Shown: piece by piece, positions 4,858-64,000 of the stretch | Numbering within the stretch: the first letter of the stretch is position 1 | Layout of the letters: every line of letters begins with the position of its first letter | Source of the DNA: a virus | DNA length: 64,000 nt | Direction: 5' to 3' (one strand) | IMG/VR virus record: IMGVR_UViG_3300032770_000005 | Coordinates: 32,001 to 96,000 of that record | Made by a program: the position numbers and the translations under genes | Notes under the pieces: generated by a model | Seen by the model: the letters and a program-made list of their open reading frames with translations, nothing else | What the model was told of the DNA's origin: nothing | Databases searched by the model: none

Positions 4858-5898
4858 GGCGCGAGGCCAGTGCGGGGGCTTCGTGCCTGCGACTACTGCG
4901 CCGCATGCCGCGCTGTGGTCCCAGCCGCCGCCGAGCGAGCCAGTGCGGGGGCCTCATGCCCGCGACATGCCAGCGCAGTGGCTTGGTGCCTGCGACGCTT
5001 GTCTCCTCGGCCGTCGGTGCCGTCAGTCGCGAGGCCAGCGCAGGGGCCTGATGCCTGCGGCCGTGTTGCGAAGCCTGCGCAGAGCCGAGTGCCTGCGACT
5101 GGCGCGTGACGAGATCGGCTCTACCTTAGGCGGTAAGCCGCGAGGCCGGCGCGGGGGCTTGGTGCTCGCGACGTGCGGTCCGAGCACGCACCGGCAACGC
5201 CTGTGTTTGCAGGGCCAGCGCGGGGGCCGAGTGCCCGCGACCCCACTTCTGCGATCCTTCGAGGCCAGCGCGAGGGCATCGTGCTCGCGACCGCGGATCC
5301 GTGCTCGCGACCGCGGATCGCGGTGAGGATCAACGAGCCCGGCCGCAGGGGGCATCGTGCCGTCGCGAAGCCAGCGCGGGGGCCGAGTGCTCGCGACGAG
5401 GTCGTGGGGTGCCCGTGCTCGTGGTCATGAAGCCAGGCCGGCGCGAGGGCTTAGTGCTTGCGACGAGAACTGTGAGCACCACGTCGGCTCAGCAGAAGGC
5501 CAGCGCGGGGGCCGTGTGCCTGCGACGGCGAGCCGGGCGCGCACCGACAGTGGACCGTCATCCGTCGCGAGAGGCCAGCGCGGGGGCCGAGTGCCCGCGA
5601 TTGTCTCGTCGCGGTCATGTTGTTGCGACGACATCATCGTTGCAGGGCCAGCGCGGGGGCCTGATGCCTGCGACTGGGCCGTTGCAGCGCGGTGCGAGTG
5701 CCTGTGTCGCGAGGCCAGCGCGAGGGCTTCGTGCTCGCGACGCAGGGTTCGCCTCCAGAAGCGCGCGGCGCGTGCTCCTCCTCGTCGCGAGGCCAGCGCA
5801 GGGGCCTGGTGCCTGCGACTGGAGATCTGCCATTGTCGTTGCCGGCGCCGTCGATGAGGCCGGAAATCACGCCAGCGCGAGGGTCTCGTGCTCGCGAC
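4858..5898 (+). CRISPR. orphan variant CRISPR array A, about 17 repeats of the Cas12m-associated family
   Basis: Repeats such as GTTGCAGGGCCAGCGCGGGGGCCTGATGCCTGCGAC (5639-5674) and GTCGCGAGGCCAGCGCGAGGGCTTCGTGCTCGCGAC (5706-5741); unique spacers from about 0 to 43 nt; local 20-nt duplication 5281-5319. Confidence 0.85.
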
Positions 5899-6758: not shown

Positions 6759-7205
6759 ATGAGCAACGACGCCTTCAACCGCGGCATCTTCAGCGAGCAG
6801 AAGGGCGTGCTCGACGACGCCTTCCAGAACGCGACGGGCGTCGAGCACGCGACCGGCGATCTCAAGGAGGGCATCAGAGAGAACGTCGAGATGGGCGGCG
6901 TGCGCCTCATGAGCGACTGCAACTACTGCGGGCTCCAGTGGCGCGGCATCGTGAAGTGGCCCGAGATCGCCGGCTTCTTCACCGGTCAGCAGGTGCCGGG
7001 CACCCAAGCGATCAGACCCGGCGTGGCCAGCGCCTTCGGTTGCAGAAAATGCAACAGCGTCAACAAGTTCCTGATGCCGTGGGCGGACATCAACCGGTAC
7101 GTGGCGATGGGCGTGGAGATGGGTGCGCTGCCGCGAGACATCTACAAGGTCCGCGAGCAGATCATGGCGCAGCGCGCCGCGCAGAGATCTGCACGCGGCA
7201 GATGA
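6759..7205 (+). CDS. Zn-ribbon hypothetical protein
   Basis: CNYC...CRKC. Confidence 0.7.
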   Translation: MSNDAFNRGIFSEQKGVLDDAFQNATGVEHATGDLKEGIRENVEMGGVRLMSDCNYCGLQWRGIVKWPEIAGFFTGQQVPGTQAIRPGVASAFGCRKCNSVNKFLMPWADINRYVAMGVEMGALPRDIYKVREQIMAQRAAQRSARGR

Positions 7206-7362
7206 CCGACATGCCTGCGCAGGGCCTCGTGCCTGCGACGCACAGCGCCGTGCATCGGCCTCAATCGCGAGGCCAGCGCGAGGGCCTCATGCTCGCGACG
7301 ACCCACGCGTGCTCTACAGGCAGGGGCCGAGGCCTGCGACCAAGAAAAGCGAGGCGCATCCG

Positions 7363-7412
7363 AAAGTCTGTCCGCATGCAGAAGTCTGTCCGCATGCAGA
7401 AGTCCGTCCGCA
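7363..7412 (+). repeat. 18-nt tandem repeat (GAAGTCTGTCCGCATGCA, about 2.7 copies) inside a spacer
   Basis: Read directly. Confidence 0.85.
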
Positions 7413-7721
7413 GATCGGCAGTCGCCAGGCCAGCGCGGGGGCTTCGTGCCTGCGACTTGCAGTGGGAGATCATGTCCGCCGTTGCATGCCAGCGCAGGGG
7501 CTACCTGCCTGCGACGCCCAGGCTCCGCGCGTGTTTGAGGCCAGCACGAGGGCCTCGTGCTCGTGACTCCCGTGCGGCCAGTTCTTGCTCGCTCGCGAAC
7601 CGTCCGCTTGACGACGGACGCCCCAAGGCCAGCGCGGGGGCCGAGTGCCTGCGACTTGCAGTGTGAGCAGTGTGAGATCAGATGGCGGCGCGCATGTAGA
7701 GAGCGTGGCGGCAAACACGGC

Positions 7722-7869
7722 CGGCGAGGCCGGCCCGTGACCGAGCGAGCGGCAGCGAACGGTAGCTCATTGCATCTTCTTCCGGGGACGATGGGTGGCC
7801 GCGCTGTCGTGGCTGCGACGGAGTTGCTGCTCCGTGGTAGTCCGGCGAGATCACGGGTCGGCCTCACCG
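7722..7869 (+). ncRNA. candidate structured RNA, three-way junction on a long closing stem
   Basis: Manual pairing: 7722-7740/7851-7869, 7747-7756/7823-7832, 7761-7772/7789-7800, 7804-7810/7815-7821; G-U pairs favour the + strand. Confidence 0.45.
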
Positions 7870-8138
7870 ACCGACTGCCGATCCTGCGACGCAGATCTGA
7901 GAACGACGCGCATCACGCCAGCGCGAGGGCCGCATGCTCGCGACAAGCGCTCGAACTCTACTAAGCCAGCGCAGGGGCCGCATGCCTGCGACGAGCACGC
8001 TCGCGATGACGCTCGCCGTCGCTCGGCTCGAAAGGCCATCGCGGGGCATCGTGCCCGCGACATGTGGACGGACGAGTTTCTTTTACAAGGCCAGCGCAGG
8101 GGCCCGTGTACCTGCGACGTCTATGGAGGCTGGGCCTC

Positions 8139-8549: not shown

Positions 8550-9028
8550 CGCTGGGCGAGAAGAAACTGCTCGAACATGGGGTTCGCGAGCGCCTCTTCT
8601 CCACCGCCGAGCTTGCGATGTCGGCGCACGACCGCGATCGCCTGCTGTGGCGTCCAGGTCGGGTAGAGCTGGAGCAGCGTCAGGGCGACGAGGAGGCCAG
8701 ATCTGTTCTTCCCTTGCATGCACGTCACGAGCACGCGCTTGCCGTGGCGCACAGCGCGGGCGATCTGCGCCGCGCTTTGCCAGAGCACGGGGATGACGTC
8801 GCGCGGGACGGGACGGTAGATGTCGTCGTCCATCGGCACGCGCAGGACCATCTTCCCGGCTGGCGCCACGAGCTTCGGCTGCGCTTCCATCGCCGAGTAG
8901 ACGATGACGTCGAAGAAGCTGAACAGCCGAGGGTCCGCGCCCGGGTACGCGCCCTGCGCGAGGTGATCGCGTACGATCCAGTTCCAGTCCCGGTAGCTCA
9001 CGAGCAGATGGTAGAACTTGTCCGACAC
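8546..9028 (-). CDS. dual-specificity/Cys-based protein phosphatase
   Basis: VLVTCMQGKNRS (Cx5R) plus PMDD acid loop and ANPMFEQFL. Confidence 0.88.
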   Translation of the reverse strand: MSDKFYHLLVSYRDWNWIVRDHLAQGAYPGADPRLFSFFDVIVYSAMEAQPKLVAPAGKMVLRVPMDDDIYRPVPRDVIPVLWQSAAQIARAVRHGKRVLVTCMQGKNRSGLLVALTLLQLYPTWTPQQAIAVVRRHRKLGGGEEALANPMFEQFLLAQR

Positions 9029-9052
9029 CGTCGCAACGGGTACGGTCGGGAC

Positions 9053-9352
9053 ATGCCCGTGTACTCAGACACCGAGAGCGTCGACGAAGACCTGATGCGA
9101 GTGCTGACTGGCATCCGTGACCGCCAGCTCGACCTCGTGATCCTCATCGGCGCTGCGTGCGTCGACCGTCCGAACGGCGGCGCACTCGCCGAGTACGTCG
9201 TCGCCCGACCTCGAACCGGCGAGCCCGAGGTGCCGCCCGACCGGCTCTACGCGATGCTCAAGTCGTCGGCCCAGCACCTGCGGGCGATGGCGGCGAGCAT
9301 GGACCAGATGGCCGACACGATCGCGTCTCCGCCGTCCGAAGACCTGAACTGA
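9053..9352 (+). CDS. hypothetical protein
   Basis: MPVYSDTES start, good codon usage. Confidence 0.6.
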   Translation: MPVYSDTESVDEDLMRVLTGIRDRQLDLVILIGAACVDRPNGGALAEYVVARPRTGEPEVPPDRLYAMLKSSAQHLRAMAASMDQMADTIASPPSEDLN

Positions 9353-9976
9353 TCACGCGCGGGCGCGTCGCCGGCGAACGACCGCGACCAGGACGAGCGC
9401 GAGCGCCCCGACCGCGGTAGCGCCGATGGCGATCGCGACGCCCATGCCGGCGCCTCCACGGGCCGCCTGGTCCATCACCGTCGCCATCGCCTGACCCCAG
9501 CCCTGCGCGGAGGTGGGCGTGAGGTGCCAGCCGAGCGAGTCGCGCGGCAGCGAGGTCGGCGTGCTCGGGTACGCGTCGATGTAGTTCGCGCCGAAGATCG
9601 CCTGGTTCTGCGTCCGCAGCGCATCTCCCACTTGCTGCGACGGCTGGCCGCTGCTCGTCGGCGAGGCGTCCGGCGGGTACTGCGGCGGACCGCTCATGTA
9701 GACGGGCGCGTGCACGCTGTCACGCATCTGGACGAGCGCGTTGCTCGTGGCCGTGCCGGCCGGGCTGTTGTGCCCGAAGATGAGCAGGACGAGATCGTTC
9801 TGAGCGGCCAGCGACGTGTACTGGTTCCAGAGCGACGGCGTGTTGACGTACGTGACGGGCGAGTCGCCGTCGTTGTGGATCTGCGTCACGGTGTGCCCAA
9901 GCGCGACGAGCGCGGCCTTCGCGGCGGCGCCGGGGTTGCCGGCCTGCGAGTCGCCGATGATCAGGATGTTCGCCAC
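9353..9976 (-). CDS. SGNH/GDSL hydrolase with C-terminal TM anchor and Arg tail
   Basis: ILIIGDS, FGHN, DSLGWH motifs; hydrophobic helix followed by RRRRARA. Confidence 0.8.
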   Translation of the reverse strand: MANILIIGDSQAGNPGAAAKAALVALGHTVTQIHNDGDSPVTYVNTPSLWNQYTSLAAQNDLVLLIFGHNSPAGTATSNALVQMRDSVHAPVYMSGPPQYPPDASPTSSGQPSQQVGDALRTQNQAIFGANYIDAYPSTPTSLPRDSLGWHLTPTSAQGWGQAMATVMDQAARGGAGMGVAIAIGATAVGALALVLVAVVRRRRARA

Positions 9977-9977
9977 G

Positions 9978-10268
9978 TCAGCGTCTCCGCTTGCTCGTCC
10001 GACGACCGCGAGGCGAGGACACGTTCTTCTGCACGACCGGCACGACGTACTGAGCTTCGAGCGCCGACAGTGTCGGCTTCGGCGCCGGCGACGGCGTGAC
10101 GTAGACCGCGTATGAGGTCTTGCTCGCTCGGCTCCGCGAGGGCAGCTCCTCGATCTTGCCGAACCAGTTGCCCACGCTCTGGAGCTTCCAGCCTATGAGC
10201 GCGTTGACCGCGTTCGCGGGCGTGGTCCAGCGTCCGATCTCCAGCCAGTTGTCGTCGTCCTTGCTCAT
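9978..10268 (-). CDS. hypothetical protein with basic tail
   Basis: MSKDDDNW start coupled to upstream stop. Confidence 0.55.
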   Translation of the reverse strand: MSKDDDNWLEIGRWTTPANAVNALIGWKLQSVGNWFGKIEELPSRSRASKTSYAVYVTPSPAPKPTLSALEAQYVVPVVQKNVSSPRGRRTSKRRR

Positions 10269-11464
10269 CCGAGTCTCCGTGGTCGCGACGGCCGCCCGCC
10301 GCAGCTGATGCACTGTACGTCGTTCACGCCGTACTCGATCGACCGACCGAACACGTGTTCGGCGATCTTGTCGGCGCGACGCTCGATGCTCTCGGGCAGC
10401 CGTCCGTAACGGCGCTCGACCGCGGCGCGTCCGAACCGGAACTCCACCGCGTGCCCGAACTCGTGCGCCACGAGGCCATCGATGTACGCCTGCGGCAGCT
10501 GCTCCGTCTTCGCGGCGAACGCGATGACGAGCGGGTCACCCTTCTTGCAGTAGCCGAACTGCCGCTCGGAGCCGTGGCCGTTGTCGCTGGCCGCATGCTC
10601 GTCGAGGTGCAGCTCTACGGTGCCGAGGTCCGGCCACTCGCGCGCCGCCGCATCGAAGTGCCGATCGAAAGATCGGCGCACGCGCTCCATCGAGCCGTTG
10701 TGGGCTAGTGGCACCTGGGGGCCACGGACTCGGCGCACGCGCTCGTGAACCGACGGCTCACCGAAGTCGATGATGACGGGCATGTCGCGCTGGATCGACC
10801 ACCTGACGTTCTCGATGTGCAGGTCTTCCGCGTGCACGCCACGCGCGGCCAGCCAATCGTAGCCCGCCAAGATGGTCCCCATCATGGCGTCAGCGTAGGC
10901 GCGCTCGCGCTCCCGAACGCGAGCCTCCTTGGGGTCGTTGCCAAGACGGGCTGTCCACTGCGGCACCACAGCATGGAGGCTCTTGATACCGCCGACACGG
11001 TCGAAGCACTGCCACTCGGACATCCGTTCGAGAGCTAGCTGGAGCAAGAGGAAGGCATGGGCGCGCTGCTCTTCTCCGGGTTGCTCGGCCGTGCCTTCGG
11101 CGAGGATCAGGTATCCGCTGGCACGACCCGGCATCCGCCAGACGCCGTAGACCTGAACGAGGCCCGGCACGGGTGCCTTGGCTCCGGCCACTAGCGCCGC
11201 GGCCCGGGCGTCGCTGACGTCGAACGTGTACTTGAGCACGCGACCGTTGGGTAGCCACCAGGCACGTGCGTACGCGCCTTTGCCAGCGAGGTGCTCGTCG
11301 TCCAGCCAGTCGGGCGGCACGTCCAGCTCGCGCAGCAGCCCGGTCATCGACCGCAGCTTGAGGGTCCAGTAGCCCTCGTCGGCCGGAGGCTGTCCGTTCG
11401 CGGTGACCCCCGCAGCGGCCTGGAGCGCTGGCGACAGGCTGACGATCTTCGGGTTCGACCGCAC
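10265..11464 (-). CDS. Ser/Thr kinase-like domain fused to HExxH metallopeptidase-like domain
   Basis: AGKGAYARA, VLKYT, DLHIENV, IIDFG; C-terminal LVAHEFGH...IERRAD. Confidence 0.75.
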   Translation of the reverse strand: MRSNPKIVSLSPALQAAAGVTANGQPPADEGYWTLKLRSMTGLLRELDVPPDWLDDEHLAGKGAYARAWWLPNGRVLKYTFDVSDARAAALVAGAKAPVPGLVQVYGVWRMPGRASGYLILAEGTAEQPGEEQRAHAFLLLQLALERMSEWQCFDRVGGIKSLHAVVPQWTARLGNDPKEARVRERERAYADAMMGTILAGYDWLAARGVHAEDLHIENVRWSIQRDMPVIIDFGEPSVHERVRRVRGPQVPLAHNGSMERVRRSFDRHFDAAAREWPDLGTVELHLDEHAASDNGHGSERQFGYCKKGDPLVIAFAAKTEQLPQAYIDGLVAHEFGHAVEFRFGRAAVERRYGRLPESIERRADKIAEHVFGRSIEYGVNDVQCISCGGRPSRPRRLG

Positions 11465-15303: not shown

Positions 15304-15993
15304 GTGATCCCCACAGAGCGACTGGACGCGCTGGACCGGGCCATCGAGCGCGGGGAAGTGCTGCGCAACGACTGGGCCCGGGAACAGGATGGTCATCAGC
15401 TGGCGTGCCTGCTCGCACATCTTTCGCCAGAGGTGGCGGTGGAGAAGTCGGCGGACGCCTGCCCCGCCAAGACCCTCGACCCGTGGTTCGCGCACCTGTT
15501 GCCGTGGATCGATGACGCGTGCTCACTCGAACGACGCGACGAGTTCCTGCGTCGCACGGCGGCGGTCCTGCGGCGCTGGGACGCACTGTCAGCCGAGACG
15601 CGTTGCCGGCTCGACTACGAATGTCGCGCGATTGCGGTGCGAGAGTCGCGGCTACGTGTGTCCGCGAGCGAAGAGCAGGCGCTTGCGGCAGTCGACGGCA
15701 TGCTTGCGTTGCTAGACCGGGCGGCCGTGGGCGGTGAGGTCAGCGCGCAGGAGTGGTCGGCGGCGGCGGCGACGGCGCGGGCGGCGGCCGCACAGGAGTG
15801 GTCGGCGGCGGCGGCGGCGGCGGCCGCGCAAGTGCGGGCGGCGGCGGCGGGGGCGGCCGCGTGGGCGGCGCGGGCGGCACCGGCTTCGGCGCGGGCGGCA
15901 GCAGCGGCTTGGGCGCGGGCGGCGGCGTCCGATCGAATGATCGACCGCATGCTCACCGCCATGGAGCGCGAGTGCGCGAAGGTGACGCCATGA
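15304..15993 (+). CDS. paralog family 'MIPxERLDAL', copy 1 (Ala-rich variable segment)
   Basis: Near-identical to 15990, 20486 and 21579 copies. Confidence 0.8.
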   Translation: MIPTERLDALDRAIERGEVLRNDWAREQDGHQLACLLAHLSPEVAVEKSADACPAKTLDPWFAHLLPWIDDACSLERRDEFLRRTAAVLRRWDALSAETRCRLDYECRAIAVRESRLRVSASEEQALAAVDGMLALLDRAAVGGEVSAQEWSAAAATARAAAAQEWSAAAAAAAAQVRAAAAGAAAWAARAAPASARAAAAAWARAAASDRMIDRMLTAMERECAKVTP

Positions 15994-16673
15994 TCCCTAC
16001 GGAACGGTTGGACGCGCTGGACCGGGCCATCGAGCGCGGGGAGGTGCTGCGCAACGACTGGGCTCGGGAGCAGGACGGTCGCCAGCTCGCGTGCCTGCTC
16101 GCGCATCTTTCGCCAGAGGTGGCGGTGGAGAAGTCGGCGGACGCCTGTCCGACCAAGACGCTCGACCCGTGGTTCGCGCATCTGCTGCCGTGGATCGACG
16201 ATGCGTGCTCGCTGGAGCGCCGCGACGAGTTCTTGCGTCGCACGGCGGCAGTGCTGCGGCGCTGGGACGCGCTGTCGGCAGAGACTCGGCGGCGTCTCGA
16301 CTACGAGTGCAGGGCGATCGCGGTGCGAGAGGCGCGGCTGCACGTGTCTGCGAGCGAAGAGCAGGCGCTTGCGGCGATCGACAGCATGTTCGCGTTGCTC
16401 GACCGCGCGATCGCGGGCGGTGAGGTCAGCAAGCAGGAGTGGTCGGCGGCGGCGGCGTCGGCGCGGGCGGTGGTCGCACAGGAGTGGTCGGCGCCGGCGG
16501 CGGGGGCGGCAGCGGCCGCGCAAGTGCGGGCGGCGGCGGCGCGTGCGGCACAGCTGGCGACTGAGGCGGTGTTGGCGCCCGAGGTGGCGGCTCAGGCGAT
16601 GGCGTCCGATCGCATGATCGACCAGATGCTCTCCGCCATGGAGCGCGAGTGCGCGAAGGCGGCGGTGACATGA
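15990..16673 (+). CDS. paralog family 'MIPxERLDAL', copy 2
   Basis: Tandem duplicate of 15304-15993. Confidence 0.8.
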   Translation: MIPTERLDALDRAIERGEVLRNDWAREQDGRQLACLLAHLSPEVAVEKSADACPTKTLDPWFAHLLPWIDDACSLERRDEFLRRTAAVLRRWDALSAETRRRLDYECRAIAVREARLHVSASEEQALAAIDSMFALLDRAIAGGEVSKQEWSAAAASARAVVAQEWSAPAAGAAAAAQVRAAAARAAQLATEAVLAPEVAAQAMASDRMIDQMLSAMERECAKAAVT

Positions 16674-20235: not shown

Positions 20236-20489
20236 TGGCGATGTCTCTCGTCGAGCGCGTTCGCAGGTTCAAGAACACGACCGGCACGTGCTCGTGGGGC
20301 GGCGCGCACGCAGGGCTCCATCCGGATGCGTGCGTCTGCAATCGAGAACCGGATGCGTATCCGGGGACGCCGCACACGCACTACGATGAGCCGCCGCACG
20401 AGTGTGCGCGCTGCGGGTGCACGGCGTACCAGCCGTGGCTCACGCTCGACTTCGTCATCCCGGGTCTGACCGTGGAGCCTACGACATGA
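20235..20489 (+). CDS. Cys/His-rich small protein
   Basis: HECARCGCTAY. Confidence 0.55.
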   Translation: MAMSLVERVRRFKNTTGTCSWGGAHAGLHPDACVCNREPDAYPGTPHTHYDEPPHECARCGCTAYQPWLTLDFVIPGLTVEPTT

Positions 20490-21265
20490 TTCCGCTCGAA
20501 CGCCTCGATGCCCTTGATGCCGCGATCGAGCGCGGGGAAGTGCTGCGTGGTGAGTGGACTTGCGAGGAGGACGGGCGCCAGCTGGCGTGTCTGCTCGCGC
20601 ATGTCTCGCCTGAGGTGGCGACGGCGAAGTCGGTGTCCGCCTGCCCCGCCAAAACGCTCGACCCGTGGTTCGCGCATCTGCTGCTGTACATCGACGATGA
20701 GTGCTCGCTCGAACGTCGCGACGAGTTCCTGCGACGCACGGCAGCAGTGCTACGGCAGTGGCACCGGCTATCCACGGAGACGCGCCGGCGGCTCGACTAC
20801 GAATGCAGAGCGGTTGCGGTCCGTGAGGTGAGGCCACACGTGCCGCTGAGCGAGGCGCAGATGATTGTGGCGATCGACAGCGCCCTCTTGCTGATTGCCA
20901 GAGCATGCGCAGGCGAGGTACTCAGCGAGCAGGAAGGGGAGGCGGTGCGCTGTTCGTTGTTCGCCGTAGACGAGGCGATGCAGTTGGCAGCGACGGCGGC
21001 GGTCCGGTCGGTGGCAGCTAGCGCGTTGCCGTGGGCAGAGCGAGCGGTGTGGTCGTCGTCGTCGACGGTGGATCCCGCGGCAGCTGCGAATGCTGCGCGA
21101 GCGGCAACGCGAGCGGTGGTGGCATTCGCGTTCGATGTGCTGGAGCCGGCAGGCTCGGCGGCGGCGGTCGCGGCGTGGACTGCGTCCGCAGAGGCGTCCG
21201 CAGATCGAATGATCAACCAGATGCTCTCCGCCATGGAGCGGGAGTGCGCGAAGGTGGCGGCGTGA
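20486..21265 (+). CDS. paralog family 'MIPxERLDAL', copy 3
   Basis: Conserved N-half and DRMINQMLSAMERECAKV end. Confidence 0.8.
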   Translation: MIPLERLDALDAAIERGEVLRGEWTCEEDGRQLACLLAHVSPEVATAKSVSACPAKTLDPWFAHLLLYIDDECSLERRDEFLRRTAAVLRQWHRLSTETRRRLDYECRAVAVREVRPHVPLSEAQMIVAIDSALLLIARACAGEVLSEQEGEAVRCSLFAVDEAMQLAATAAVRSVAASALPWAERAVWSSSSTVDPAAAANAARAATRAVVAFAFDVLEPAGSAAAVAAWTASAEASADRMINQMLSAMERECAKVAA

Positions 21266-21582
21266 TCTCCGTGGTCGACGTCGCAACGGAGAAGGAGTTC
21301 CTCGACCGCGCGACGGCCGCCGGCACTACGGTCCACGTTCTTCGGACCACCGCGGTTGCTCCTGTGCCGCTCGGAGGCGGGACAGTGCTCCTGCGTTCTG
21401 CCATCGCGCTCCAGTACTCGTTCGAGACCCATTCCGAGAACGGTGATACGCGGTGGGTGTATCGCGAGCGCTGCGTCGCGGATGAGCATGGCATCGTGGA
21501 CCTCTCGAACGTTTTGCTCACGCGGATCGCGGACGCAGGCGTTCCTACGGTCGTGTTCACGCAGCGCAGCGGGTCGCTATGA
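21262..21582 (+). CDS. hypothetical protein
   Basis: Coupled at both ends. Confidence 0.6.
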   Translation: MISVVDVATEKEFLDRATAAGTTVHVLRTTAVAPVPLGGGTVLLRSAIALQYSFETHSENGDTRWVYRERCVADEHGIVDLSNVLLTRIADAGVPTVVFTQRSGSL

Positions 21583-22385
21583 TTCCGGTCGAACGCCTCG
21601 ACGCCCTTGATGCCGCGATCGAGCGCGATGAGGTGCCGCTTGCATGGAAGAAAGAGCAGGGCGGACGGGTACTCTTGTCCTTCCTCGCTCACCTTTCTCC
21701 GGTGTTTGCGGCGCAACCGTCTTGGGGGCTCCTGACGAGCCGACCCGGCGACTCGTTCTACTACGGCTTGGTCGAGGGGACGCTCGACCCGTGGCTTGCT
21801 GAGCTACTTGAGTGGATCACGCGTACCGGCTCGCCTGAGCGGCGCGACCGCGTTCTGCGTCGCACGGCGGCAGTGCTGCGGCGCTGGGACGCGCTGTCGG
21901 CAGAGACGCGACGCCAGCTCGACTACGAGTGCAGGGCGATCGTGGTGCGCGAGGCTAGACAGCACGTACCGGAGAGTGAAGAGCGCTCGCTCGCGGCGAT
22001 CGACAACGTGCTCGCGTTGCTCGATCGCGCGATCGCTGGTGGCGAGGTCGGCGAGCGGGAGTGGTCGGCGGTGGAGGCGAGCGGGATTGCAGAGGCGCAG
22101 GCATTGAGCGCACGAGGGGGGAGCGTTCGCGCGCGAGGAGGGGACATTCATGACATTCGCGTAGCGTGGCAGGCTACACAGGCCGCATACGTTGCGTGCG
22201 AGCGGTTGCCAAGGGCCGCCAAGTACGCAGTGTATCGTGCAGTAGATGCGGCGCCGTTGACACTGGTACCGCGGCCGCCTGACGGGACACATTGGTACTT
22301 TTATGCACAATGTGTAGTTGCCGACCGGATCATAGACCAGATGCTCACCGCCATGGAGCGCGAATGCGCGAAGGTGACGACATGA
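21579..22385 (+). CDS. paralog family 'MIPxERLDAL', copy 4 (divergent lower-GC variable segment)
   Basis: Same framework; segment about 22090-22320 is AT-richer. Confidence 0.75.
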   Translation: MIPVERLDALDAAIERDEVPLAWKKEQGGRVLLSFLAHLSPVFAAQPSWGLLTSRPGDSFYYGLVEGTLDPWLAELLEWITRTGSPERRDRVLRRTAAVLRRWDALSAETRRQLDYECRAIVVREARQHVPESEERSLAAIDNVLALLDRAIAGGEVGEREWSAVEASGIAEAQALSARGGSVRARGGDIHDIRVAWQATQAAYVACERLPRAAKYAVYRAVDAAPLTLVPRPPDGTHWYFYAQCVVADRIIDQMLTAMERECAKVTT

Positions 22386-24577: not shown

Positions 24578-24921
24578 CCTCGGAAGAACGTGAAGCCAGC
24601 ATTCGAGACATGTGCACGCTCGTGCTCGCGGGCGAGCGCGTGCCAGCGGCGTGGGGAGACGTGGCGTTCTTGCTCACTCTGCTCGACGCCGCCCGGAAGC
24701 AGTCGGTCGTCACCGAGCAAGGCCCGGCGGGCGCGTGGAGCGAGACCGGAACCGTCATCGAGCGCGCCCATCAGGCGGGCAAGGTAGGCGACTTCGCGGC
24801 ACTCGTGAGGCTGTGCCTGGACCGCGGGACGGATGCGCTCTTCTACGCAGTGTCCGAGGGCGGCAGCGTGTTCTGCTTCGCCGAGAGCGACATCGTCGAC
24901 CTGCTGGCGGCGGATGACTGA
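24574..24921 (+). CDS. hypothetical protein
   Basis: RBS GGAGG, coupled. Confidence 0.55.
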   Translation: MTSEEREASIRDMCTLVLAGERVPAAWGDVAFLLTLLDAARKQSVVTEQGPAGAWSETGTVIERAHQAGKVGDFAALVRLCLDRGTDALFYAVSEGGSVFCFAESDIVDLLAADD

Positions 24922-25352
24922 TGAACGCGCCCGACATGACGTCCCTCTCGCGCCGAGATCGCGCCGCCATCTTGCTGGCGTTGACGTGGATTCGCGTCAC
25001 GCCTGGTCGCGGTGGCGGTCCGCTGCTGGCGCGGGAGCAGGCGTGCGAAGCGCTGCGGATGGGAGGCAAGGGGGCGAAGGCGATCGCTGAGGCCGTGGCC
25101 AGCGCGAACTCGGAACTGGCGTCCGAGATGGCACGCAACGGCGACTTGTCATCGGAGGCACGCTATCTGGACGTGCTCGCCACGAACCGGCGGCTGGTCC
25201 GCGCCCGCCTCGCGCTCTTCCTGCGGACCGTCGTGCGCGTTGACGACGACGATTACGGATGTTGGGACGGAGACCGCGGTGGATGGTTGCCGCGGCCGTA
25301 TCATGCTCTCTGGGAATCCGCACCACCGCATCGAAAGAAGGTCAGCCAATGA
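24921..25352 (+). CDS. hypothetical protein directly upstream of cas12
   Basis: TGATG start; stop overlaps the cas12 ATG. Confidence 0.6.
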   Translation: MNAPDMTSLSRRDRAAILLALTWIRVTPGRGGGPLLAREQACEALRMGGKGAKAIAEAVASANSELASEMARNGDLSSEARYLDVLATNRRLVRARLALFLRTVVRVDDDDYGCWDGDRGGWLPRPYHALWESAPPHRKKVSQ

Positions 25353-27214
25353 GCGTCAAGGTCTATCGCTATGGTTTGGGCGCACCGGTCGAGAACGAAG
25401 CGTTGGTGCGGGCGCAGCTGCGTGCGGCGCATCACTACCGCAACGCGCTCGTCGAGGTCGAGCGGTGGCGCCGCGCCGAGCACCGACGACTGCTCGGTGC
25501 GCATCCGGGCGTCGGGCCGGCGGAGGCCGCGGTGACGCTCGCCCATGCGGTGCTCGACGAGGCGTTGACCGCCGTCAAGCGCGTGAAGGGGGCGAGTCGC
25601 AGCGGTGCGGTGCCGTCGGAGTTGCGCGCTGCGCTCCATGTGGCGCGCTCCCGCAAGGCCGATGCCGTGCGAGCGTTCCGAGAGGCGCGAGCGGCGCTGC
25701 GCGGAGACGAAGCGCTGAACGCCGAGCGGGCGCGCGTCGACGAGACGGCTGCTCAGCGGCGGAAGGCCCTCCGAGCGTCCTGCGGCGTCTACTGGGGCAC
25801 GTACCTCGGGATCGAAGCGGCGGATGAGCAGTCGCGCAAGCAGCCGCTCTACGACGGCGCGGAGCCGCTCGACCCGCGGTTCATGCCGTGGACGGGCGAA
25901 GGACGTGTCGGCGTTCAGTTCCAGGGCGGCCTCGCGGTCGACCAGGTGGTGGACGACACGCGCATGAGGATCGAGGACGCGCAGCCGGTGCGCGTCTCAA
26001 AGCTCGGGCGCGTGCTGCCTCAGCGTGATCCGTCGAGCAAGCGATCCGCCCTCCGCCGCTACGCGACGCTCGCGCTGCGCGTCGGGTCCGACGACGATCG
26101 TGGGCCCGTGTGGGCTCGCTGGCCGCTCGTGCTGCACCGGCCGCTCCCCGAGGGCGGCGTCCTCAAGTGGGCACACGTCTCGCTCCGGCGGATCGGTCCG
26201 CGCGAGGAGTGGTCGCTGCTTTGCACCGTCGAGAGCGAGGACCGTCGCCCGCTGCCGCCGCTCGAAGCCGGAGCGGTCGCGGTCGATCTCGGGTGGCGGC
26301 AGATGGACGACGGCTCCGTGCGCGTCGCCTACTGGCTGGGCCAGGACGGGCAGGAGGGCGAACTGCGGCTCTCGCCGCGCGACCTCTCCGGGCTCTCGAA
26401 GGCGGACGAGGTGCGGGCTGTCCGCGACCGCGCCTTCGATGCCGCGCGCCGCGAGCTGCGTGAGTGGCTCGCCACGAACCCTGGTCGACCGTGGCTGAGG
26501 ACGAGGTGCGAGTGGATCGACCGGTGGAAGGCGCCGGGCCGGCTCGCCGCGACGGTCGTGCAGTGGCGCGCGGACGGCTTCCGCTTCGAGGGCGACAAGG
26601 AGATCTTCGTGAAGCTCGAAGCGTGGCGCAAGCAGGACAAGCACCTCTGGTGCTGGGAGACGTCGCAGCGCACGGGCGCGCTGCGAGCGAGGAAGGATCT
26701 GTACCGCCGCTTCGCGTGTGACCTGGCGCGTCGCTACCGCACGCTCGTGATCGAAGACTTCGACATGCGCGAGGTGTCGCGCCGACCTGCCGCGGACGAA
26801 GCGGCCGGCAACGCTGCCGCGCGGTCGATGAGGCAGCGGGCAGCGCCGAGCGAGGCTCGTCTCGCGCTCGTGCACGCGTTCCGCGACGTGTCGAAGCAGG
26901 ACCCCGCCGACACGACCCACGACTGCCACTCGTGCGGGTCGCGCGAGCAGTTCGATCAGGCGGCCGAGCTGGTCCATCGCTGCGGAGCGTGCGGCACCGA
27001 GTGGGACCAGGACCGGAACGCGGCTATCAACCTGATGCGTCGCGCGAGCGATGCCGGTGCTCTCGGAGAAGGCGGGGTCGCTCGCGAGCCGCGAGAGGCC
27101 AACGATTTCGAGGCGAAGCCCGCGGGCCGATGGGCGCGAGCGAAGGCGAAGAAGGCCGCTCGCATCGCGCAACAGGCGACCGCTCGCGAAGCGGCGCCCA
27201 GTGACGCGGAATGA
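25349..27214 (+). CDS. cas12m: compact type V CRISPR effector, Cas12m/V-U1 (C2c4)-like, 621 aa
   Basis: VYRYGL..QLRAAHHYRNALVE; YWGTY; GEGRVGVQ; LHRPLP; RuvC-I VAVDLGWR (D313); WKAPGRLA; RKDLYRRFA; RuvC-II LVIED (E469); Zn finger CHSC/CGAC; RuvC-III WDQDRNAA (D555); adjacent array. Subtype recognised from memory of the family, not by search. Confidence 0.85.
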   Translation: MSVKVYRYGLGAPVENEALVRAQLRAAHHYRNALVEVERWRRAEHRRLLGAHPGVGPAEAAVTLAHAVLDEALTAVKRVKGASRSGAVPSELRAALHVARSRKADAVRAFREARAALRGDEALNAERARVDETAAQRRKALRASCGVYWGTYLGIEAADEQSRKQPLYDGAEPLDPRFMPWTGEGRVGVQFQGGLAVDQVVDDTRMRIEDAQPVRVSKLGRVLPQRDPSSKRSALRRYATLALRVGSDDDRGPVWARWPLVLHRPLPEGGVLKWAHVSLRRIGPREEWSLLCTVESEDRRPLPPLEAGAVAVDLGWRQMDDGSVRVAYWLGQDGQEGELRLSPRDLSGLSKADEVRAVRDRAFDAARRELREWLATNPGRPWLRTRCEWIDRWKAPGRLAATVVQWRADGFRFEGDKEIFVKLEAWRKQDKHLWCWETSQRTGALRARKDLYRRFACDLARRYRTLVIEDFDMREVSRRPAADEAAGNAAARSMRQRAAPSEARLALVHAFRDVSKQDPADTTHDCHSCGSREQFDQAAELVHRCGACGTEWDQDRNAAINLMRRASDAGALGEGGVAREPREANDFEAKPAGRWARAKAKKAARIAQQATAREAAPSDAE

Positions 27215-27233: not shown

Positions 27234-28206
27234 GTTGCAGGGCCAGCGCGGGGGCCGAGTGCCTGCGACGCGTCCGCGAGCCCAACGACGCGATCCGCCT
27301 GCGCTGGCGTTGCAGGGCCAGCGCGGGGGCCGAGTGCCTGCGACGGGCGATCTCCGCGGCGTTCCGTCGCCGCTAAATCAGCGGGTTGCAGGGCCAGCGC
27401 GGGGGCCGAGTGCCTGCGACACGCCTGCGGACCTTCGAGTTCGGCTGCATGTCGCGAAGTTGCAGGGCCAGCGCGGGGGCCGAGTGCCTGCGACGTTGAG
27501 CAGATTGAAGGTGTTCACCCGCTTCGTCGCGGTTGCAGGGCCAGCGCGGGGGCCGAGTGCCTGCGACGTGGAGGCGGCGAAGACGAGCCGCCGGGGAATC
27601 TTTAGTTTGCAGGGCCAGCGCAGGGGCCTGGTGCTTGCGACTTCTGTCCGTGCTGCGGGCACAAGCCTGCGGAGTAGAGGTGCGAGGCCGGCGCGGGGGC
27701 CTGGTGCTCGCGACCCTCGGTAGCAATCGACCTTCGCGAGCGCGAGCGCCCAGTTGCATGGCCAGCGCGGGGGCCGAGTGCCCGCGACACCTCGGTGATG
27801 TAGCGCTTAGCGCCCGCGTCGCAGGGCCAGCGCGGGGGCCGAGTACCTGCGACCTCTCCAACTGCTCTTGCTCGGTCACGGTGATCTCCTGTTGCAGGGC
27901 CAGCGCGGGGGCCGTGTGCCTGCGACAAACCCCGCGTCGATGAGATCGTACTCGCCCACTCCGGTCGCGAAGCCAGCGCAGGGGCTTTGTGCCTGCGACG
28001 CCAGGCTCGCGAAGGTTGGGCGTGTCGATAGGCCGGCGCGGGGGCCTTGTGCCTGCGACCGTAGGTAGTCCTTCGTGACGCCCAGCATCTGGGCGACGTT
28101 GCAGGGCCAGCGCGAGGGCTTGGTGCTCGCGACAGCCGCTTCACGATCTCGAAGACCCTCTTCTCGTTGTGTGGCGAGGCCTGCGCAGGGGCCTTGTGCC
28201 TGCGAC
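27234..28206 (+). CRISPR. main CRISPR array, 14 repeats and 13 spacers, repeat GTTGCAGGGCCAGCGCGGGGGCCGAGTGCCTGCGAC (36 nt)
   Basis: Repeats start at 27234, 27309, 27385, 27459, 27532 (identical), then variants at 27606, 27679, 27753, 27818, 27891, 27964, 28024, 28098, 28171; spacers mostly 37-40 nt (two of 29 and 24). Confidence 0.97.
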
Positions 28207-33142: not shown

Positions 33143-34552
33143 GTGTCCGACACCATGTCCGACACAGTGTCCGACACCAAGTCACCGCCCGAGACCGCTC
33201 AGGCAGATCTGACCGCAGCAGCGGAAGCGTTCGAGGGCCCGCAGAAGGGCGCCGCGGCGGTGAGCGAGGTCATCGGCGAGCGGATTGCCGGCTACTCCTA
33301 CGTCGCGCCGCCGGCCCCGGGCTCCGACGTGCACGGGCTGTGGCACTACTTCCCCTGCCACGACCGGTCGGGCTACGCCGCGCACGCAATCGCCATGCAC
33401 GCGATGATGCAAGACCGGCTGAAGGTCCCCGTGTCGCTCGTGCCGACGCGCTCCGCAGCGATCGACATCGACTACTTCCCGCGCGACCGCTTCGACATGC
33501 TGCTCCGGTGGAACAAGGACACGTGCGGTCATCCCGAGGCGATGATCGTGTCGCTGCCGCCGTCGCGCGAGTCGTTCCGCGAGTGGGACCGCACGCGTGC
33601 GTTCGTCATGTACTGCGCCTACGAGGCCACCGCGGTCAGCGAGTTCGCCGTGCAGATCTGCAACGACGACCGCGTGACCGCGCTCTGGTGCGTCAGCCCC
33701 TTCACGGCTCGGGCGTTCATCGACTCCGGCGTCGAGCCCGGCAAGGTGTTCGTCCTGCCGCCGCCCATCTGCGATGGGCCGTGGCTCGACATGCTCGACG
33801 ACACGGGGCCTGCGTCCGAGCCCGAGGGCATCTTCCGGTTCACGACCATGGGGACGTGGCACGAGCGCAAGGGGTTCCACGATCTGATCCGCGCCTACTT
33901 CTCCACGTTCAAGCGCGAGGAGCCGGTCGAGCTGGCCATCCGCACGTCGAGCCTCGGTGACGGCGACACGCTGCGGAAGTTCAAGGAGCGGGTCATCGAC
34001 GAGATCGCGAGCATCGCTCGCGCGTACGGCGACGCTCGCTACCCGCACTCGATGAAGATGCCGCGCATCCGCATGCTGCTCGGCACGGACCTGACCGACC
34101 GCGAGGTCATGAGCTGGCTCTGCAAGTTCAGCGACTGCTTCGTCAACGCGTCCTACGGCGAGGGGCTTGGGATTCCGGCGATGTGGGCCGCGGCGCACGG
34201 CATCCCGATCGTGTCGTCGGACTTCGGCGCGGTCGGGGAGTTCCTCGCGGACGCTCAGGTGGCGGCGCCAGTCGGCGACGTGCTGCACATGTTCCCGGCG
34301 AAGGTGGCGCCGGTGCCGACGACGATGCTGCGCTTCAACAGCCTCTTCGATCCGAACGCGCAGTGGGGCTCGTACGACGTTCCCGAGCTGGGCGCGGCCA
34401 TGCGCCGGGCATTCAGTGCTGGCCGCCGGCGCAACGACGCGCTCGCTCGGTACACGCGCTCGCGGTTCTCCTACGACAGGTGCGAGCATCCTGCGGCCGT
34501 GGCGCTGAAGTTCATCAGTCGCCCCGAGACGCTCGCGCGGTGGGGCTTGTGA
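33143..34552 (+). CDS. GT4-family glycosyltransferase
   Basis: SGYAAHA, WHERKG, DCFVNASYGEGLGIP. Confidence 0.85.
   Translation: MSDTMSDTVSDTKSPPETAQADLTAAAEAFEGPQKGAAAVSEVIGERIAGYSYVAPPAPGSDVHGLWHYFPCHDRSGYAAHAIAMHAMMQDRLKVPVSLVPTRSAAIDIDYFPRDRFDMLLRWNKDTCGHPEAMIVSLPPSRESFREWDRTRAFVMYCAYEATAVSEFAVQICNDDRVTALWCVSPFTARAFIDSGVEPGKVFVLPPPICDGPWLDMLDDTGPASEPEGIFRFTTMGTWHERKGFHDLIRAYFSTFKREEPVELAIRTSSLGDGDTLRKFKERVIDEIASIARAYGDARYPHSMKMPRIRMLLGTDLTDREVMSWLCKFSDCFVNASYGEGLGIPAMWAAAHGIPIVSSDFGAVGEFLADAQVAAPVGDVLHMFPAKVAPVPTTMLRFNSLFDPNAQWGSYDVPELGAAMRRAFSAGRRRNDALARYTRSRFSYDRCEHPAAVALKFISRPETLARWGL
33144..33176. promoter_or_regulatory. three tandem TGTCCGACA boxes at 12-bp period
   Basis: 33144, 33156, 33168; directly after TTGACC-N17-CAGTGT (33118-33146). 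Confidence 0.55.
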
Positions 34553-40623: not shown

Positions 40624-40937
40624 CACGGCGCGCCGGCGCGAGGGCTTCGTACTCGCAACTCGGAGGAGGATAGTGCGAAGCCAGCGCGGGGGCCGAGTGC
40701 CTGCGAGCGAGCGCGTCCGGTCTCGTCGTCGCGAGGCCTGCGCGGGGGCCTGATGCCTGCGACCGGTCCATCGGAGTCTCCTTTTGCTGTTGTGCGAGGT
40801 CGCAGGGCCAGCGCGGGGGCCTTGCGCTCGCGACACAATGAACCGGACGCTCGTCCGGTAGCCAGCGCAGAGGCTTCATGTCTGCGACCGCATCGCTGGT
40901 AGGCGAAAGGCCAGCGCAGGGGCCGAATGCCTGCGAC
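40624..40937 (+). CRISPR. orphan variant CRISPR array C, 6 repeats
   Basis: Repeat ends at 40659, 40707, 40763, 40834, 40888, 40937; spacers about 12-35 nt. Confidence 0.8.
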
Positions 40938-47891: not shown

Positions 47892-48107
47892 GTCGCAGGC
47901 ACCCCTGCGGTTCGCGGGCACATTCGGAAGCGGGCTGGTCACCATGTCGCGAGCACGAGGCCCCCGCGCTGGCCAGACGCGCGCCGCGCCGGGCGTCACG
48001 TAGTCGACGTGTCGCGAGTACCAAGCCCTCGCGCTGGCTTCCGACCACGAGAGACGGGTCCACTACGTCCTCGACGCGAGCACGAAGCCCTCGCGCTGGC
48101 TTCGCCC
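47892..48107 (-). CRISPR. orphan mini-array D in reverse orientation, 3 repeats plus 2 remnants
   Basis: Reverse-complement repeats at 47946-47974, 48011-48045, 48073-48107; remnants at 47892 and 47912. Confidence 0.75.
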
Positions 48108-48108
48108 C

Positions 48109-53208: not shown

Positions 53209-54423
53209 ATGACCGCTCGTACCCTCATCGACCGTGACGCGGTGGTCGCGAGGCTTCGACAGCGTGCCGAGGCCGCCGAGCGCGCAGGCCGGCACCAGTC
53301 CGGGCCACACATGATGCCGGAGCACTGGCTCCGCGAAGAGGCCGCCGCTATCGAGCGCGAGCCAGCCGCGTCGGTGCCACCAGCGAGCATCCCGGAGCGC
53401 GAGCGAGCGCTGGTGCGGGAGATGTTCAACGAAGTAGTCGAATTCTGCGCGGAGCTGTACGGCGCGTCGCCAGACGGCTTGAGCGACGAAGATGTTGCGC
53501 GAATCGTCGCTCGGGTGGACGCCACACATCCGCACTCCGAACCAAGGCCAGCGCGGGGGCTTGGTGCCTGCGACGGAGCATCTCCGGCCGCCGCGCCGAA
53601 GGTGTCGTGCAGCAAGTGCCTCGGAACGCGGCGCGTGCTCGACTGTCGAGGTAACGACGACGATCGGTGCCCATGGTGCGCCGACCCGAAGCCCGTGCCG
53701 AGCGGGTTGCGGGAGTGGTTCTCGCGCGTGCTGGACGCTGCTGCCGAGCGTGGGCTCGTCGTCTCGTCGGATGAGCGTGGCATCACCGAGGCGCTCGCCA
53801 GCGTCGGCCTGCCGCCCACCGAGCCCGTGCCGAGCGCGTTGGAGTCGGCGTGCGCGTTCTTGCAAGAGCACAGGCAACAGGTGCGCGAGATCGCATCTGC
53901 CGGCGACGGCACATCGTGGTCCGCTGAGGTTGGTGCGACCAGCTACGGACGGGCGCCGACGCTCACGGGATGCCTGTTCGCCACGGCGCGCTCCCTCGGT
54001 TGGATGCCACCCACGGAACCCAGCCAGAACCCGTTGGAGCGCGCGATGGTGCGTCACGACGCCATCGCACATCAGGCTGACGTGCTCATCGCTCGGTACG
54101 ATGAGCGAGAGCGGTGCGCGAAGGCGTGCGATGAAGCGGCCGACAGGCGCGAAGGAACGTCGCAGGATTTCTGCGTCTCCGCTCTGCGCAATCTCGCCGC
54201 CTGCATCCGCTCGCTCGGTCCCGCCGCGCCGGCGCCGCGCGCGGAAGAGGTGGCGAACATCATGACGAAGCTGATCGTGAAGAAGCTGCGCGAAGAAGTG
54301 CGCGTGCTCCGCGAGCACGAGCGCACGACGCCGAACGAACACCATGCGCTCAAGGCATGTGGTGCAGCGGATGCGTTCGAAGAACTGGCCGCCCGCATCG
54401 AGCGCGAAGGGAGCTGGCGATGA
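53209..54423 (+). CDS. mosaic hypothetical protein containing an in-frame CRISPR repeat
   Basis: Modules shared with neighbours; CSKC/CPWC finger; repeat at 53546-53574. Confidence 0.6.
   Translation: MTARTLIDRDAVVARLRQRAEAAERAGRHQSGPHMMPEHWLREEAAAIEREPAASVPPASIPERERALVREMFNEVVEFCAELYGASPDGLSDEDVARIVARVDATHPHSEPRPARGLGACDGASPAAAPKVSCSKCLGTRRVLDCRGNDDDRCPWCADPKPVPSGLREWFSRVLDAAAERGLVVSSDERGITEALASVGLPPTEPVPSALESACAFLQEHRQQVREIASAGDGTSWSAEVGATSYGRAPTLTGCLFATARSLGWMPPTEPSQNPLERAMVRHDAIAHQADVLIARYDERERCAKACDEAADRREGTSQDFCVSALRNLAACIRSLGPAAPAPRAEEVANIMTKLIVKKLREEVRVLREHERTTPNEHHALKACGAADAFEELAARIEREGSWR
53546..53574 (+). repeat. solo CRISPR repeat core inside a CDS
   Basis: GGCCAGCGCGGGGGCTTGGTGCCTGCGAC. 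Confidence 0.85.
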
Positions 54424-58923: not shown

Positions 58924-59480
58924 CCGGGCGACGAGGCGACCCGTCGTACACGCCGCCGACCGACGAGGAGCGACGCCTCGGCTACTACCTCGACTGCGTC
59001 AGCTGCGGCCGCCCGTGGGCGCTGCGCAGCTGCGTGCCGCACTTGCATCGCTGCCGCTCCTGCGCTCGCTCGTGGTGGCGCGACTACCGCCAGGCGGCGC
59101 GCCAAGGGCTGCCGCGGCCGAGCCTGCTAGGGCAGATCGCGCCGCATCCCTTCGCCTCGAAGGCGCTGAACCGCACGGTCGATCTGAACGCTCCGGGGCT
59201 CCTCGACCTGGTCGAGCAGGACCCGAAGTTCGCGAAGGAGCTGGACGCGTACATCGCCAGCCTGCGGCACGCCGACAGCAGCAAGCCGCCGCTGCGCGGC
59301 GCGGCCCTGAGCCTATCGGGACGGCCGCGTCGCCGCGCCGTGCGCGTGCCGCTCGATGAAGACCCTACGCCCGAGCCGCCCATCTCCCGAGCGGCAGCCA
59401 AGGAGGTCGAGCGCCTGGTCGACGAGGTGCTCGTCGGCGACGTGATCGATGCCGGAGCGGTGCCGCGTCGGCGCGCGTGA
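58920..59480 (+). CDS. Zn-finger hypothetical protein
   Basis: CVSC..CRSC. Confidence 0.6.
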   Translation: MTGRRGDPSYTPPTDEERRLGYYLDCVSCGRPWALRSCVPHLHRCRSCARSWWRDYRQAARQGLPRPSLLGQIAPHPFASKALNRTVDLNAPGLLDLVEQDPKFAKELDAYIASLRHADSSKPPLRGAALSLSGRPRRRAVRVPLDEDPTPEPPISRAAAKEVERLVDEVLVGDVIDAGAVPRRRA

Positions 59481-59705
59481 GAGGCCTGCGCGGGGGCATG
59501 GTGCTCGCGACGCGCTCGCGACGAACCACGAGAGCCGGCGACGCGCCCATCCCGAAGCCAGCGCGGGGGCTTCGTGCCTGCGACTCGTGACGGAAGTTTC
59601 TCGTGGCTGACCTGTTGCATTCTGTCGAAAGGCCAGCGCGGAGGCTCTCATGTCCGCGACATGCAGTTCCACGACTGAGCCAGCGCGAGGGCTTGTGCTC
59701 GCGAC
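59476..59705 (+). CRISPR. orphan mini-array E, 4 repeats
   Basis: Repeat ends at 59511, 59584, 59660, 59705. Confidence 0.78.
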
Positions 59706-63925: not shown

Positions 63926-64000
63926 CAGCATGCGCCAGCGCGAGGGCCTGGTGCTCGCGACCAGGCCTGAAGAGCCCTGCGGTCACGAAGCCTGCGCAGG
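63926..64000 (+). CRISPR. start of orphan array F (cut by the window end)
   Basis: GCCAGCGCGAGGGCCTGGTGCTCGCGAC ending at 63961, second repeat from about 63982. Confidence 0.7.

Follow-up and report, generated by a model that had tools for sequence, protein, structure and literature searches.

A Cas12m of the common D-E-D form in a virus-like element with an adjoining CRISPR array and dispersed repeat units

Does an intact RuvC triad in a Cas12m-like protein mean that the protein cuts DNA? The question is raised by a gene in a 64,000-nucleotide (nt) window (the whole stretch of DNA that we analysed), which corresponds to bases 32001-96000 of a 152,857-bp IMG/VR virus record, IMGVR_UViG_3300032770_000005, rated complete by CheckV. 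The gene, cas12m, encodes a protein of 621 amino acids (aa; P0001, effector 'B'), and a first-pass annotation had proposed that it might be a nuclease-competent member of its family or one in transition from TnpB to Cas12m. Our analysis, which established family membership, fold, array linkage, repeat structure and the absence of adaptation genes, assigns P0001 to the known Cas12m family as a new member with the common D-E-D site, and points to an RNA-guided DNA binder that probably silences its targets without cleaving them. The issue that it touches, why most Cas12m proteins retain a canonical RuvC triad without deoxyribonuclease (DNase) activity in the orthologs tested, is a real one and not new, and neither is the D-E-D inference: D-E-D clades were described in 2022, and reports of viral D-E-D Cas12m proteins followed in 2024 and 2026.

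The residues D313, E469 and D555 and the CxxC/CxxC finger that had been noted for P0001 are all present in its translation (Table 1). A GC content at third codon positions (GC3) of 0.85 and at least 172 homologs with E<=1e-5 indicate that cas12m is a real gene. Its start is supported by an ATGA overlap with an upstream 143-aa open reading frame (ORF), by a GAAGG 8-12 nt upstream of the ATG at 25349, and by the alignments of homologs, which begin at P0001 residues 1-5; judging from the sequence, the same overlap suggests a single operon with translational coupling.

Comparison with proteins of solved structure showed that P0001 is a full Cas12m (type V-M, formerly V-U1) and not a TnpB-to-Cas12 intermediate, and its size falls within the known Cas12m range of 536-628 aa. 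With phmmer against PDB chains the best match was 23vw_A, 'DNA-binding protein Cas12m' (E 1.5e-67, residues 7-568), followed by Cas12m2 (3e-27), GoCas12m (2e-26) and UnCas12m4a (5e-24), while TnpB reached only 7e-4 over the last ~60 residues. Alignments to the Cas12m chains (23vw, Cas12m2 and GoCas12m) span about P0001 residues 5-568; matches to TnpB sequences are confined to the C-terminal ~130 residues. A profile built from 60 homologs gave E values of 6.5e-151 for 23vw, 3e-79 for Cas12m2, 2e-76 for GoCas12m and 9e-58 for UnCas12m4a, with TnpB-like proteins, Fanzor or Cas12f at 1.4e-10 at best and Cas12f chains matching at about 1e-8 in the TNB region only. Over the aligned sequence that we compared, the residues of 23vw are identical to the Thermanaerosceptrum fracticalcis sequence in the supplement of Bigelyte et al., which identifies this chain as TfCas12m. 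Pfam and NCBIfam recognise in P0001 only the TnpB/Cas12f-type C-terminal zinc-ribbon part (PF07282 at 513-562).

The predicted fold agrees with this placement. An AlphaFold2 model of P0001, made from the family alignment (predicted local distance difference test, pLDDT, 89.9; predicted template modelling score, pTM, 0.83), has four long N-terminal helices (17-144), a beta-rich WED domain, a RuvC domain and a zinc finger, so that the domains of the protein read as WED, REC coiled coil, RuvC, TNB zinc finger and a C-terminal basic helix (residues 594-613). In Foldseek the model gave template modelling (TM) scores of 0.76/0.79 to Cas12m2 (8hhl) and 0.74/0.76 to GoCas12m (8pm4), against query-normalised values of 0.33-0.39 for Cas12f and TnpB structures, which argues for a full Cas12m with the REC coiled-coil insertion and not for a short intermediate. 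P0001 is not a Cas12f (type V-F), given its weak E values, TM scores of 0.34-0.39 to Cas12f structures and the lack of a detected anti-repeat; nor is it a TnpB, being 621 aa long where TnpB has about 400, carrying a REC2 insertion and having a CRISPR array behind its gene. The suggestion of a transitional member is thus contradicted by the full-size Cas12m architecture and by a TM score of 0.76 to Cas12m2 against <=0.39 to Cas12f and TnpB, and sequence, fold and repeat linkage together speak against the outcome that had been named as refuting, a protein that clusters with TnpB proteins associated with insertion sequences (IS) and ignores the repeats.

The description of P0001 as Cas12m-like and array-associated is borne out by the end-to-end alignment, by the fold and by the 14-repeat array that begins 19 nt past the cas12m stop. 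The first five repeats of this array are identical; eleven of its spacers are 37-40 nt long and the other two 24 and 29 nt. Array linkage is also the rule among relatives: at 59 of 80 IMG/VR homolog loci an array begins at -60 to +400 nt relative to the stop, and its repeats belong to the same 36-nt class, with GAC at their end. An nhmmer model of P0001's repeat found 86 copies in about 12 loci over the whole record. Among 70 unique copies, conservation covers positions -28 to -1, positions -36 to -29 are variable, the stem C14-G19/C29-G34 is paired in 66-70 of the 70 with G:C to A:U exchanges at two pairs, and the segments GCC(9-11) and GGC(20-22) are invariant. This pairing scheme is that reported for the PmCas12m crRNA (CRISPR RNA), in which -28..-26 pair with -15..-17 and -23..-20 with -3..-6, and it resembles that of Cas12m2, whose crRNA is disordered at nucleotides -36 to -30 and has its C(-1) read by H269/R270 (PMC10442227). 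P0001 H263/R264, which align to these two readers of C(-1), are invariant in the family. The search with the repeat model found no reverse-strand match (anti-repeat) within 10 kb of cas12m, from which we infer that the crRNA of P0001 works without a trans-activating CRISPR RNA (tracrRNA); an Rfam search of the locus matched neither CRISPR-DR nor any other family.

In the dispersed clusters, neighbouring matches to the 36-nt repeat are mostly separated by gaps of 11-43 nt. With conservation confined to the 3' 28 nt of each repeat, 8 nt can be added to the gap as usable guide, which brings it to at least 19 nt in nearly all units. The conserved 28 nt of the dispersed copies are exactly the part that is ordered in Cas12m crRNA structures, and even solitary and irregular repeat units may, to go by their sequence, still be loadable as guide units. 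The first-pass annotation had supposed that the protein might cut with long spacers and only bind with short ones. This idea finds no footing: solved Cas12m complexes contain a 17-bp heteroduplex, with the remaining guide of Cas12m2 unpaired and PmCas12m likewise appearing to use about 17 nt, nearly all units reach or exceed that length, and there is no sign that spacer length decides between cutting and binding. As a separate observation, two arrays share a copy of one repeat-spacer-repeat unit, inverted in one relative to the other (record 91624-91705 and 106240-106285, 40/40 nt identical).

What, then, does the triad itself say? In HMMER alignments D313/E469/D555 of P0001 correspond to D/E/D of PDB 23vw and to H/D/D of Cas12m2, so the contrast that had been drawn with the Mycolicibacterium mucogenicum prototype holds. 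The D-E-D form is, however, no distinguishing mark within the family but its commonest state, being present in 102 of the 120 nearest homologs, in 58 of 82 sequences of a viral-locus alignment (80 IMG/VR loci and the element's two paralogs) and in 165 of 210 members (79%) of a tree set. The tree, in which MsCas12m, PpCas12m, MkCas12m and a Cas12m2-like protein were taken from plasmid records and which was rooted on an H-D-D mycobacterial protein with no TnpB outgroup sequence, requires at least 27 independent switches of triad state. The array was kept at 15 of the 24 viral loci that are not D-E-D. In an alignment of 60 sequences H263, R264, G315, W316, D553 and D555 are invariant while D313 and E469 are conserved below 90%, so that the residues that read the RNA handle show stronger conservation than the first two of the catalytic triad. 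The census sharpens the question of why the triad is retained: 79% of members are D-E-D, the state has switched at least 27 times, arrays outlast the triad, and the handle readers are better conserved.

Biochemical work on relatives bears on the same point. D-E-D clades 3 and 4 were set out by Wu et al. 2022, as cited in PMC10442227, and D-E-D Cas12m proteins were among the viral homologs of the CHOOSER study (9 of 21; PMC11576732). Cas12m2 remained inactive in cleavage when its HDD site was changed to DED (PMC10442227). Bigelyte et al. 2024 found no double-stranded DNA (dsDNA) cleavage by any Cas12m tested, four D-E-D orthologs (Ms, Tf, Ap and Un) included, and did find binding that depends on a protospacer-adjacent motif (PAM), in 6 of 8 variants; with ribonucleoproteins (RNPs) of MsCas12m and GoCas12m that had been assembled from purified components, no cleavage of DNA, of RNA or of collateral substrates was seen, and TfCas12m gave plasmid interference at the ori (PMC11013384). 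Reading the triad as the sign of a nuclease-competent member is therefore unsupported on three counts: D-E-D is the majority state, four D-E-D orthologs showed no dsDNA cleavage, and DED-Cas12m2 is inactive.

Taken together with the behaviour of relatives, our analysis suggests that P0001 is probably an RNA-guided DNA binder that silences its targets without cleavage; binding without cleavage, guide length and silencing are here carried over from characterised Cas12m proteins. Under this model, cas12m and the array downstream of its stop would be transcribed together, and the protein would bind the 3' 28 nt of each 36-nt repeat, folded as a small pseudoknot with GAC at its end. The following ~17-20 nt would serve as guide, with which PAM-flanked dsDNA would be found and an R-loop formed, and the protein would then remain on the target and block transcription or replication with no cutting. 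D313-E469-D555 is the ancestral TnpB/Cas12 state and most likely holds Mg2+ and the displaced strand, as in Cas12m2. Six-frame Pfam searches for Cas1, Cas2 and Cas4 over the whole 152,857-bp record, to which positive-control genomes responded, found none of them; the earlier remark on missing adaptation genes was correct, and because there is no cas1, cas2 or cas4 the element cannot acquire spacers itself.

Several points weigh against this model. Only 6 of the 8 variants of Bigelyte et al. bound their targets, so some of the 'no cleavage' results may come from inactive preparations. The D-E-D orthologs tested are distant, with 37% identity of P0001 to MsCas12m and to the probable UnCas12m locus, and about 3 substitutions per site separate P0001 from the tested D-E-D orthologs on the tree. 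The retention of D-E-D in ~79-85% of relatives that are 25-50% identical points to selection, which catalysis would also explain. Finally, searches of the element, of IMG/VR and of the fetched relatives, together with one metagenome scan, revealed no protospacer, and no PAM could be derived. For example, exact 24-28-nt searches of IMG/VR with four main-array spacers gave no match, nor did an exact search of JGI metagenome contigs with one main-array spacer. The best guide matches in 1.2 Mb of fetched related loci, 20/21 in L014 and 17/17 in L113, were rejected as noise: both begin at guide position 3-4, and with 86 queries matches of this quality are expected.

The alternative that survives best is that P0001 is a nuclease-competent Cas12m whose D-E-D RuvC cuts or nicks target DNA, and we regard it as unlikely. 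It might act with a host cofactor, with Mn2+, on single-stranded or supercoiled substrates, or through slow nicking of the non-target strand. The protein does have the full triad and the zinc finger, 165 of 210 relatives retain the triad, and Omura et al. raised the possibility of DNA hydrolysis by clades 3 and 4 (PMC10442227). Moreover, another phage-encoded miniature Cas12 is reported to be enhanced by host thioredoxin (preprint 10.1101/2025.01.20.633832), which means that negative results in vitro can overlook cofactor-dependent activity; the Foldseek listing for the P0001 model includes a Cas12p-TrxA structure, 9jfs. At the same time, the D-E-D orthologs without dsDNA cleavage include the closest solved relative, TfCas12m, whose depositors named it a DNA-binding protein (23vw); the purified MsCas12m RNP cleaved neither RNA nor collateral substrates; restoring DED to Cas12m2 gave an inactive protein; and in the family the first two catalytic residues were lost repeatedly while the array was retained. 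A narrower form, in which the virus-borne clade uses its D-E-D for conditional nicking or displaced-strand cleavage that depends on a host factor or on the substrate, strikes us as a rather long shot. If true, it would make P0001 a 621-aa, tracrRNA-free, self-processing nuclease, which a large virus would deploy against its host or its rivals from two effector/repeat sets orthogonal to each other and from over 80 dispersed guide units.

Unlikely, too, is that P0001 and the 86 dispersed guide units form a regulatory device akin to CRISPR interference (CRISPRi) and not a defence, tuning host genes or timing the element's own programme as TnpB-derived TldR transcription factors do. The 86 copies of the crRNA-handle core in about 12 loci would fit such a role, the binding-only mechanism of the family suits regulation, and the syntenic position of cas12m is conserved in a related element of 166 kb. 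On the other hand, no guide significantly matches the element's own genome (the 86 guides, searched against the 152.9-kb record, returned only repeat artefacts and one duplicated repeat-spacer unit), which makes self-regulation by perfect pairing unlikely; no host target was found; and the V-M systems on mobile genetic elements studied so far target competing plasmids and phages. That P0001 is a transposon-type TnpB, or a TnpB-to-Cas12 intermediate that merely adjoins repeats, as its exclusively TnpB/Cas12f-type matches in Pfam and NCBIfam and the 'transposase' label on several database copies might imply, is wildly improbable and is contradicted by the full-length Cas12m alignment and fold with its REC insertion (query-normalised TM 0.38 to TnpB 8h1j), by array linkage in 59 of 80 viral homolog loci, by the co-conservation of repeat handle and reader residues, and by six-frame Pfam searches that responded to control genomes but found no IS200-type Y1 transposase (TnpA) in the whole record, IS ends not having been searched for specifically.

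Table 1. Positions of the cas12m locus, repeat clusters and a further ORF, in window numbering
Feature	Position	Strand	Remark
Dispersed cluster, 16 copies of the same repeat	4858..5898	+	irregular spacing
Dispersed cluster, 10 repeat copies	7205..8118	+	
Upstream 143-aa ORF	24921..25352	+	stop overlaps cas12m start (ATGA); no Pfam family
cas12m coding sequence (effector 'B', P0001, 621 aa)	25349..27214	+	stop-free ORF translation
H263 and R264 codons	26135..26140	+	aligned to Cas12m2 H269/R270
RuvC-I Asp313 codon	26285..26287	+	VAVDLGWR
RuvC-II Glu469 codon	26753..26755	+	LVIEDFD
TNB zinc finger	26924..26992	+	C526-x2-C529 ... C545-x2-C548; Pfam PF07282
RuvC-III Asp555 codon	27011..27013	+	WDQDRNAA; WDQD motif
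Main CRISPR array	27234..28206	+	14 repeats of 36 nt; begins 19 nt past cas12m stop
469-aa ORF	33143-34552		Pfam match glycosyltransferase group 1
Mini-array, 6 repeat copies	40624..40937	+	gaps 12-35 nt
Three repeat copies	47946..48108	-	
Solitary repeat copy	53539..53574	+	
Four repeat copies	59476..59705	+	
Further repeat cluster, start	63926..64000	+	continues past window end to about 64232 (window numbering)

The genomic context is more unusual than the protein: a single virus-like element holds two diverged Cas12m paralogs with different repeat types, what is left of a third locus, and 86 guide units in which exactly the 28 nt ordered in Cas12m crRNA structures are conserved. The second intact paralog, P0002 (586 aa, D-E-D, 46-47% identical to P0001), lies at record position 8790-10550 and groups with P0001 on the tree as its sister (support 0.997). 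Directly behind it, in a region reaching to record 11245, lie three copies of a repeat with another core (GGCTGCGCGGCGCCTTGAAGACCGCGA), which is found at no other place in the record; the first two copies are about 540 nt apart, and the interval contains a whole ORF. On the minus strand, a remnant of a cas12m 3' end (region to 107410) precedes a 19-repeat array of the B type (record 105824-107209); the remnant is visible at the nucleotide level over the last ~150 nt of cas12m and has 60% aa identity to residues 562-613; array and remnant look like a third cas12m-array module whose gene was lost.

A related ENA scaffold of 165,978 bases (L124) carries within its bases 1-21917 a Cas12m, P0007 (47% identity), in the same gene neighbourhood, with eight neighbouring genes common to the two elements at 44-64% aa identity and an array of about 13 repeats similar in sequence to those described here. 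The shared synteny indicates that cas12m is a stable resident in a lineage of large elements. Five related viral records have one Cas12m copy each, and two of them have direct terminal repeats, which favours a virus over a plasmid; the virus nature of the present element rests on its IMG/VR classification. Neither Terminase_6N nor an HK97 capsid, ParB or VirB4 turned up when the whole record was searched in six frames. Most of its large proteins belong to no Pfam or PHROG family, and searches of 20 of them against PHROGs and Pfam recognised two helicases, a MoxR-type ATPase, a VWA metallopeptidase and a DUF932 protein. Around cas12m, eight of ten ORFs had no Pfam match and one had sub-threshold matches only. 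Both record ends (1-323 and 152509-152857) consist of the same 24-nt tandem repeat in 13-14 copies each, suggesting a circular or terminally repeated genome whose assembly broke inside the repeat. Direct repeats on a scale of 300 nt (4-5 copies, 70-89% identity, with (CGG)n-rich tracts) occur at window positions 15305-16673, 20487-22380 and 48113-48555 and are probably paralogous genes with Gly/Ala-rich linkers.

P0001 adds a D-E-D member to a family that is already used for CRISPRi, base editing and epigenome editing, and among solved structures its best match is TfCas12m of the Firmicute T. fracticalcis (PDB 23vw). The two proteins have in common the D-E-D triad (D306/E459/D550 in TfCas12m), the WDQD motif, the zinc finger, a single crRNA with 36-nt-class repeats ending in GAC, and the lack of adaptation genes. 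TfCas12m is, however, chromosomal, whereas P0001 comes from a virus-like element, and the alignment between them stops at P0001 residue 568, leaving uncovered the C-terminal tail with its basic helix (594-613). Cas12m2 of M. mucogenicum (8hhl/8hio; Wu 2022, Omura 2023) resembles P0001 in fold, in the REC coiled-coil insertion, in the HR motif that reads C(-1), in the pseudoknot architecture of its crRNA and in being borne on a mobile element without cas1 or cas2, but it has H-D-D in place of D-E-D, and the identity in the structural alignment is about 24%. More generally, V-M systems are enriched on plasmids and are also found in some prophages (review PMC11656645).

Among virus-borne relatives, MvCas12m of myxophage MV-1 (10.64898/2026.09.14.751636) is, at about 610 aa, close to P0001 in length and like it D-E-D (D305/E463/D555) and adjoined by an array, with no cas1, cas2 or cas4, no tracrRNA and no identified targets. 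The triad of a homolog in our set, P0082 (610 aa), occupies precisely these positions, and going by this match P0082 is probably MvCas12m itself; it is about 42% identical to P0001. MV-1 is described with one effector and one 8-spacer array, whereas the present element carries a pair of intact paralogs, the remnant of a third and 86 copies of the repeat. Likewise of viral origin is UnCas12m, which stems from an IMG/VR contig (Bigelyte 2024, Table S2); its locus is probably our L023, whose triad positions match after a 22-residue offset and whose sample number is a neighbouring one; L023 is 37% identical to P0001. UnCas12m and the 21 CHOOSER homologs (PMC11576732) fall in sub-clades other than that of P0001, none of them closer than 50% identity. 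Beyond these, a Brocadiaceae metagenome-assembled genome contig (L092:2851-3245) has, beside a 44%-identical Cas12m, an array whose repeats match the element's B-type core at 25-27 of 28-30 aligned positions and are thus far closer than the proteins. GenBank KX853510.1 (Virus Rctr197k, 197 kb, from a DAMO/AAA enrichment) encodes at 112507-114171 a 33%-identical Cas12m homolog that is annotated merely as 'similar to transposase'.

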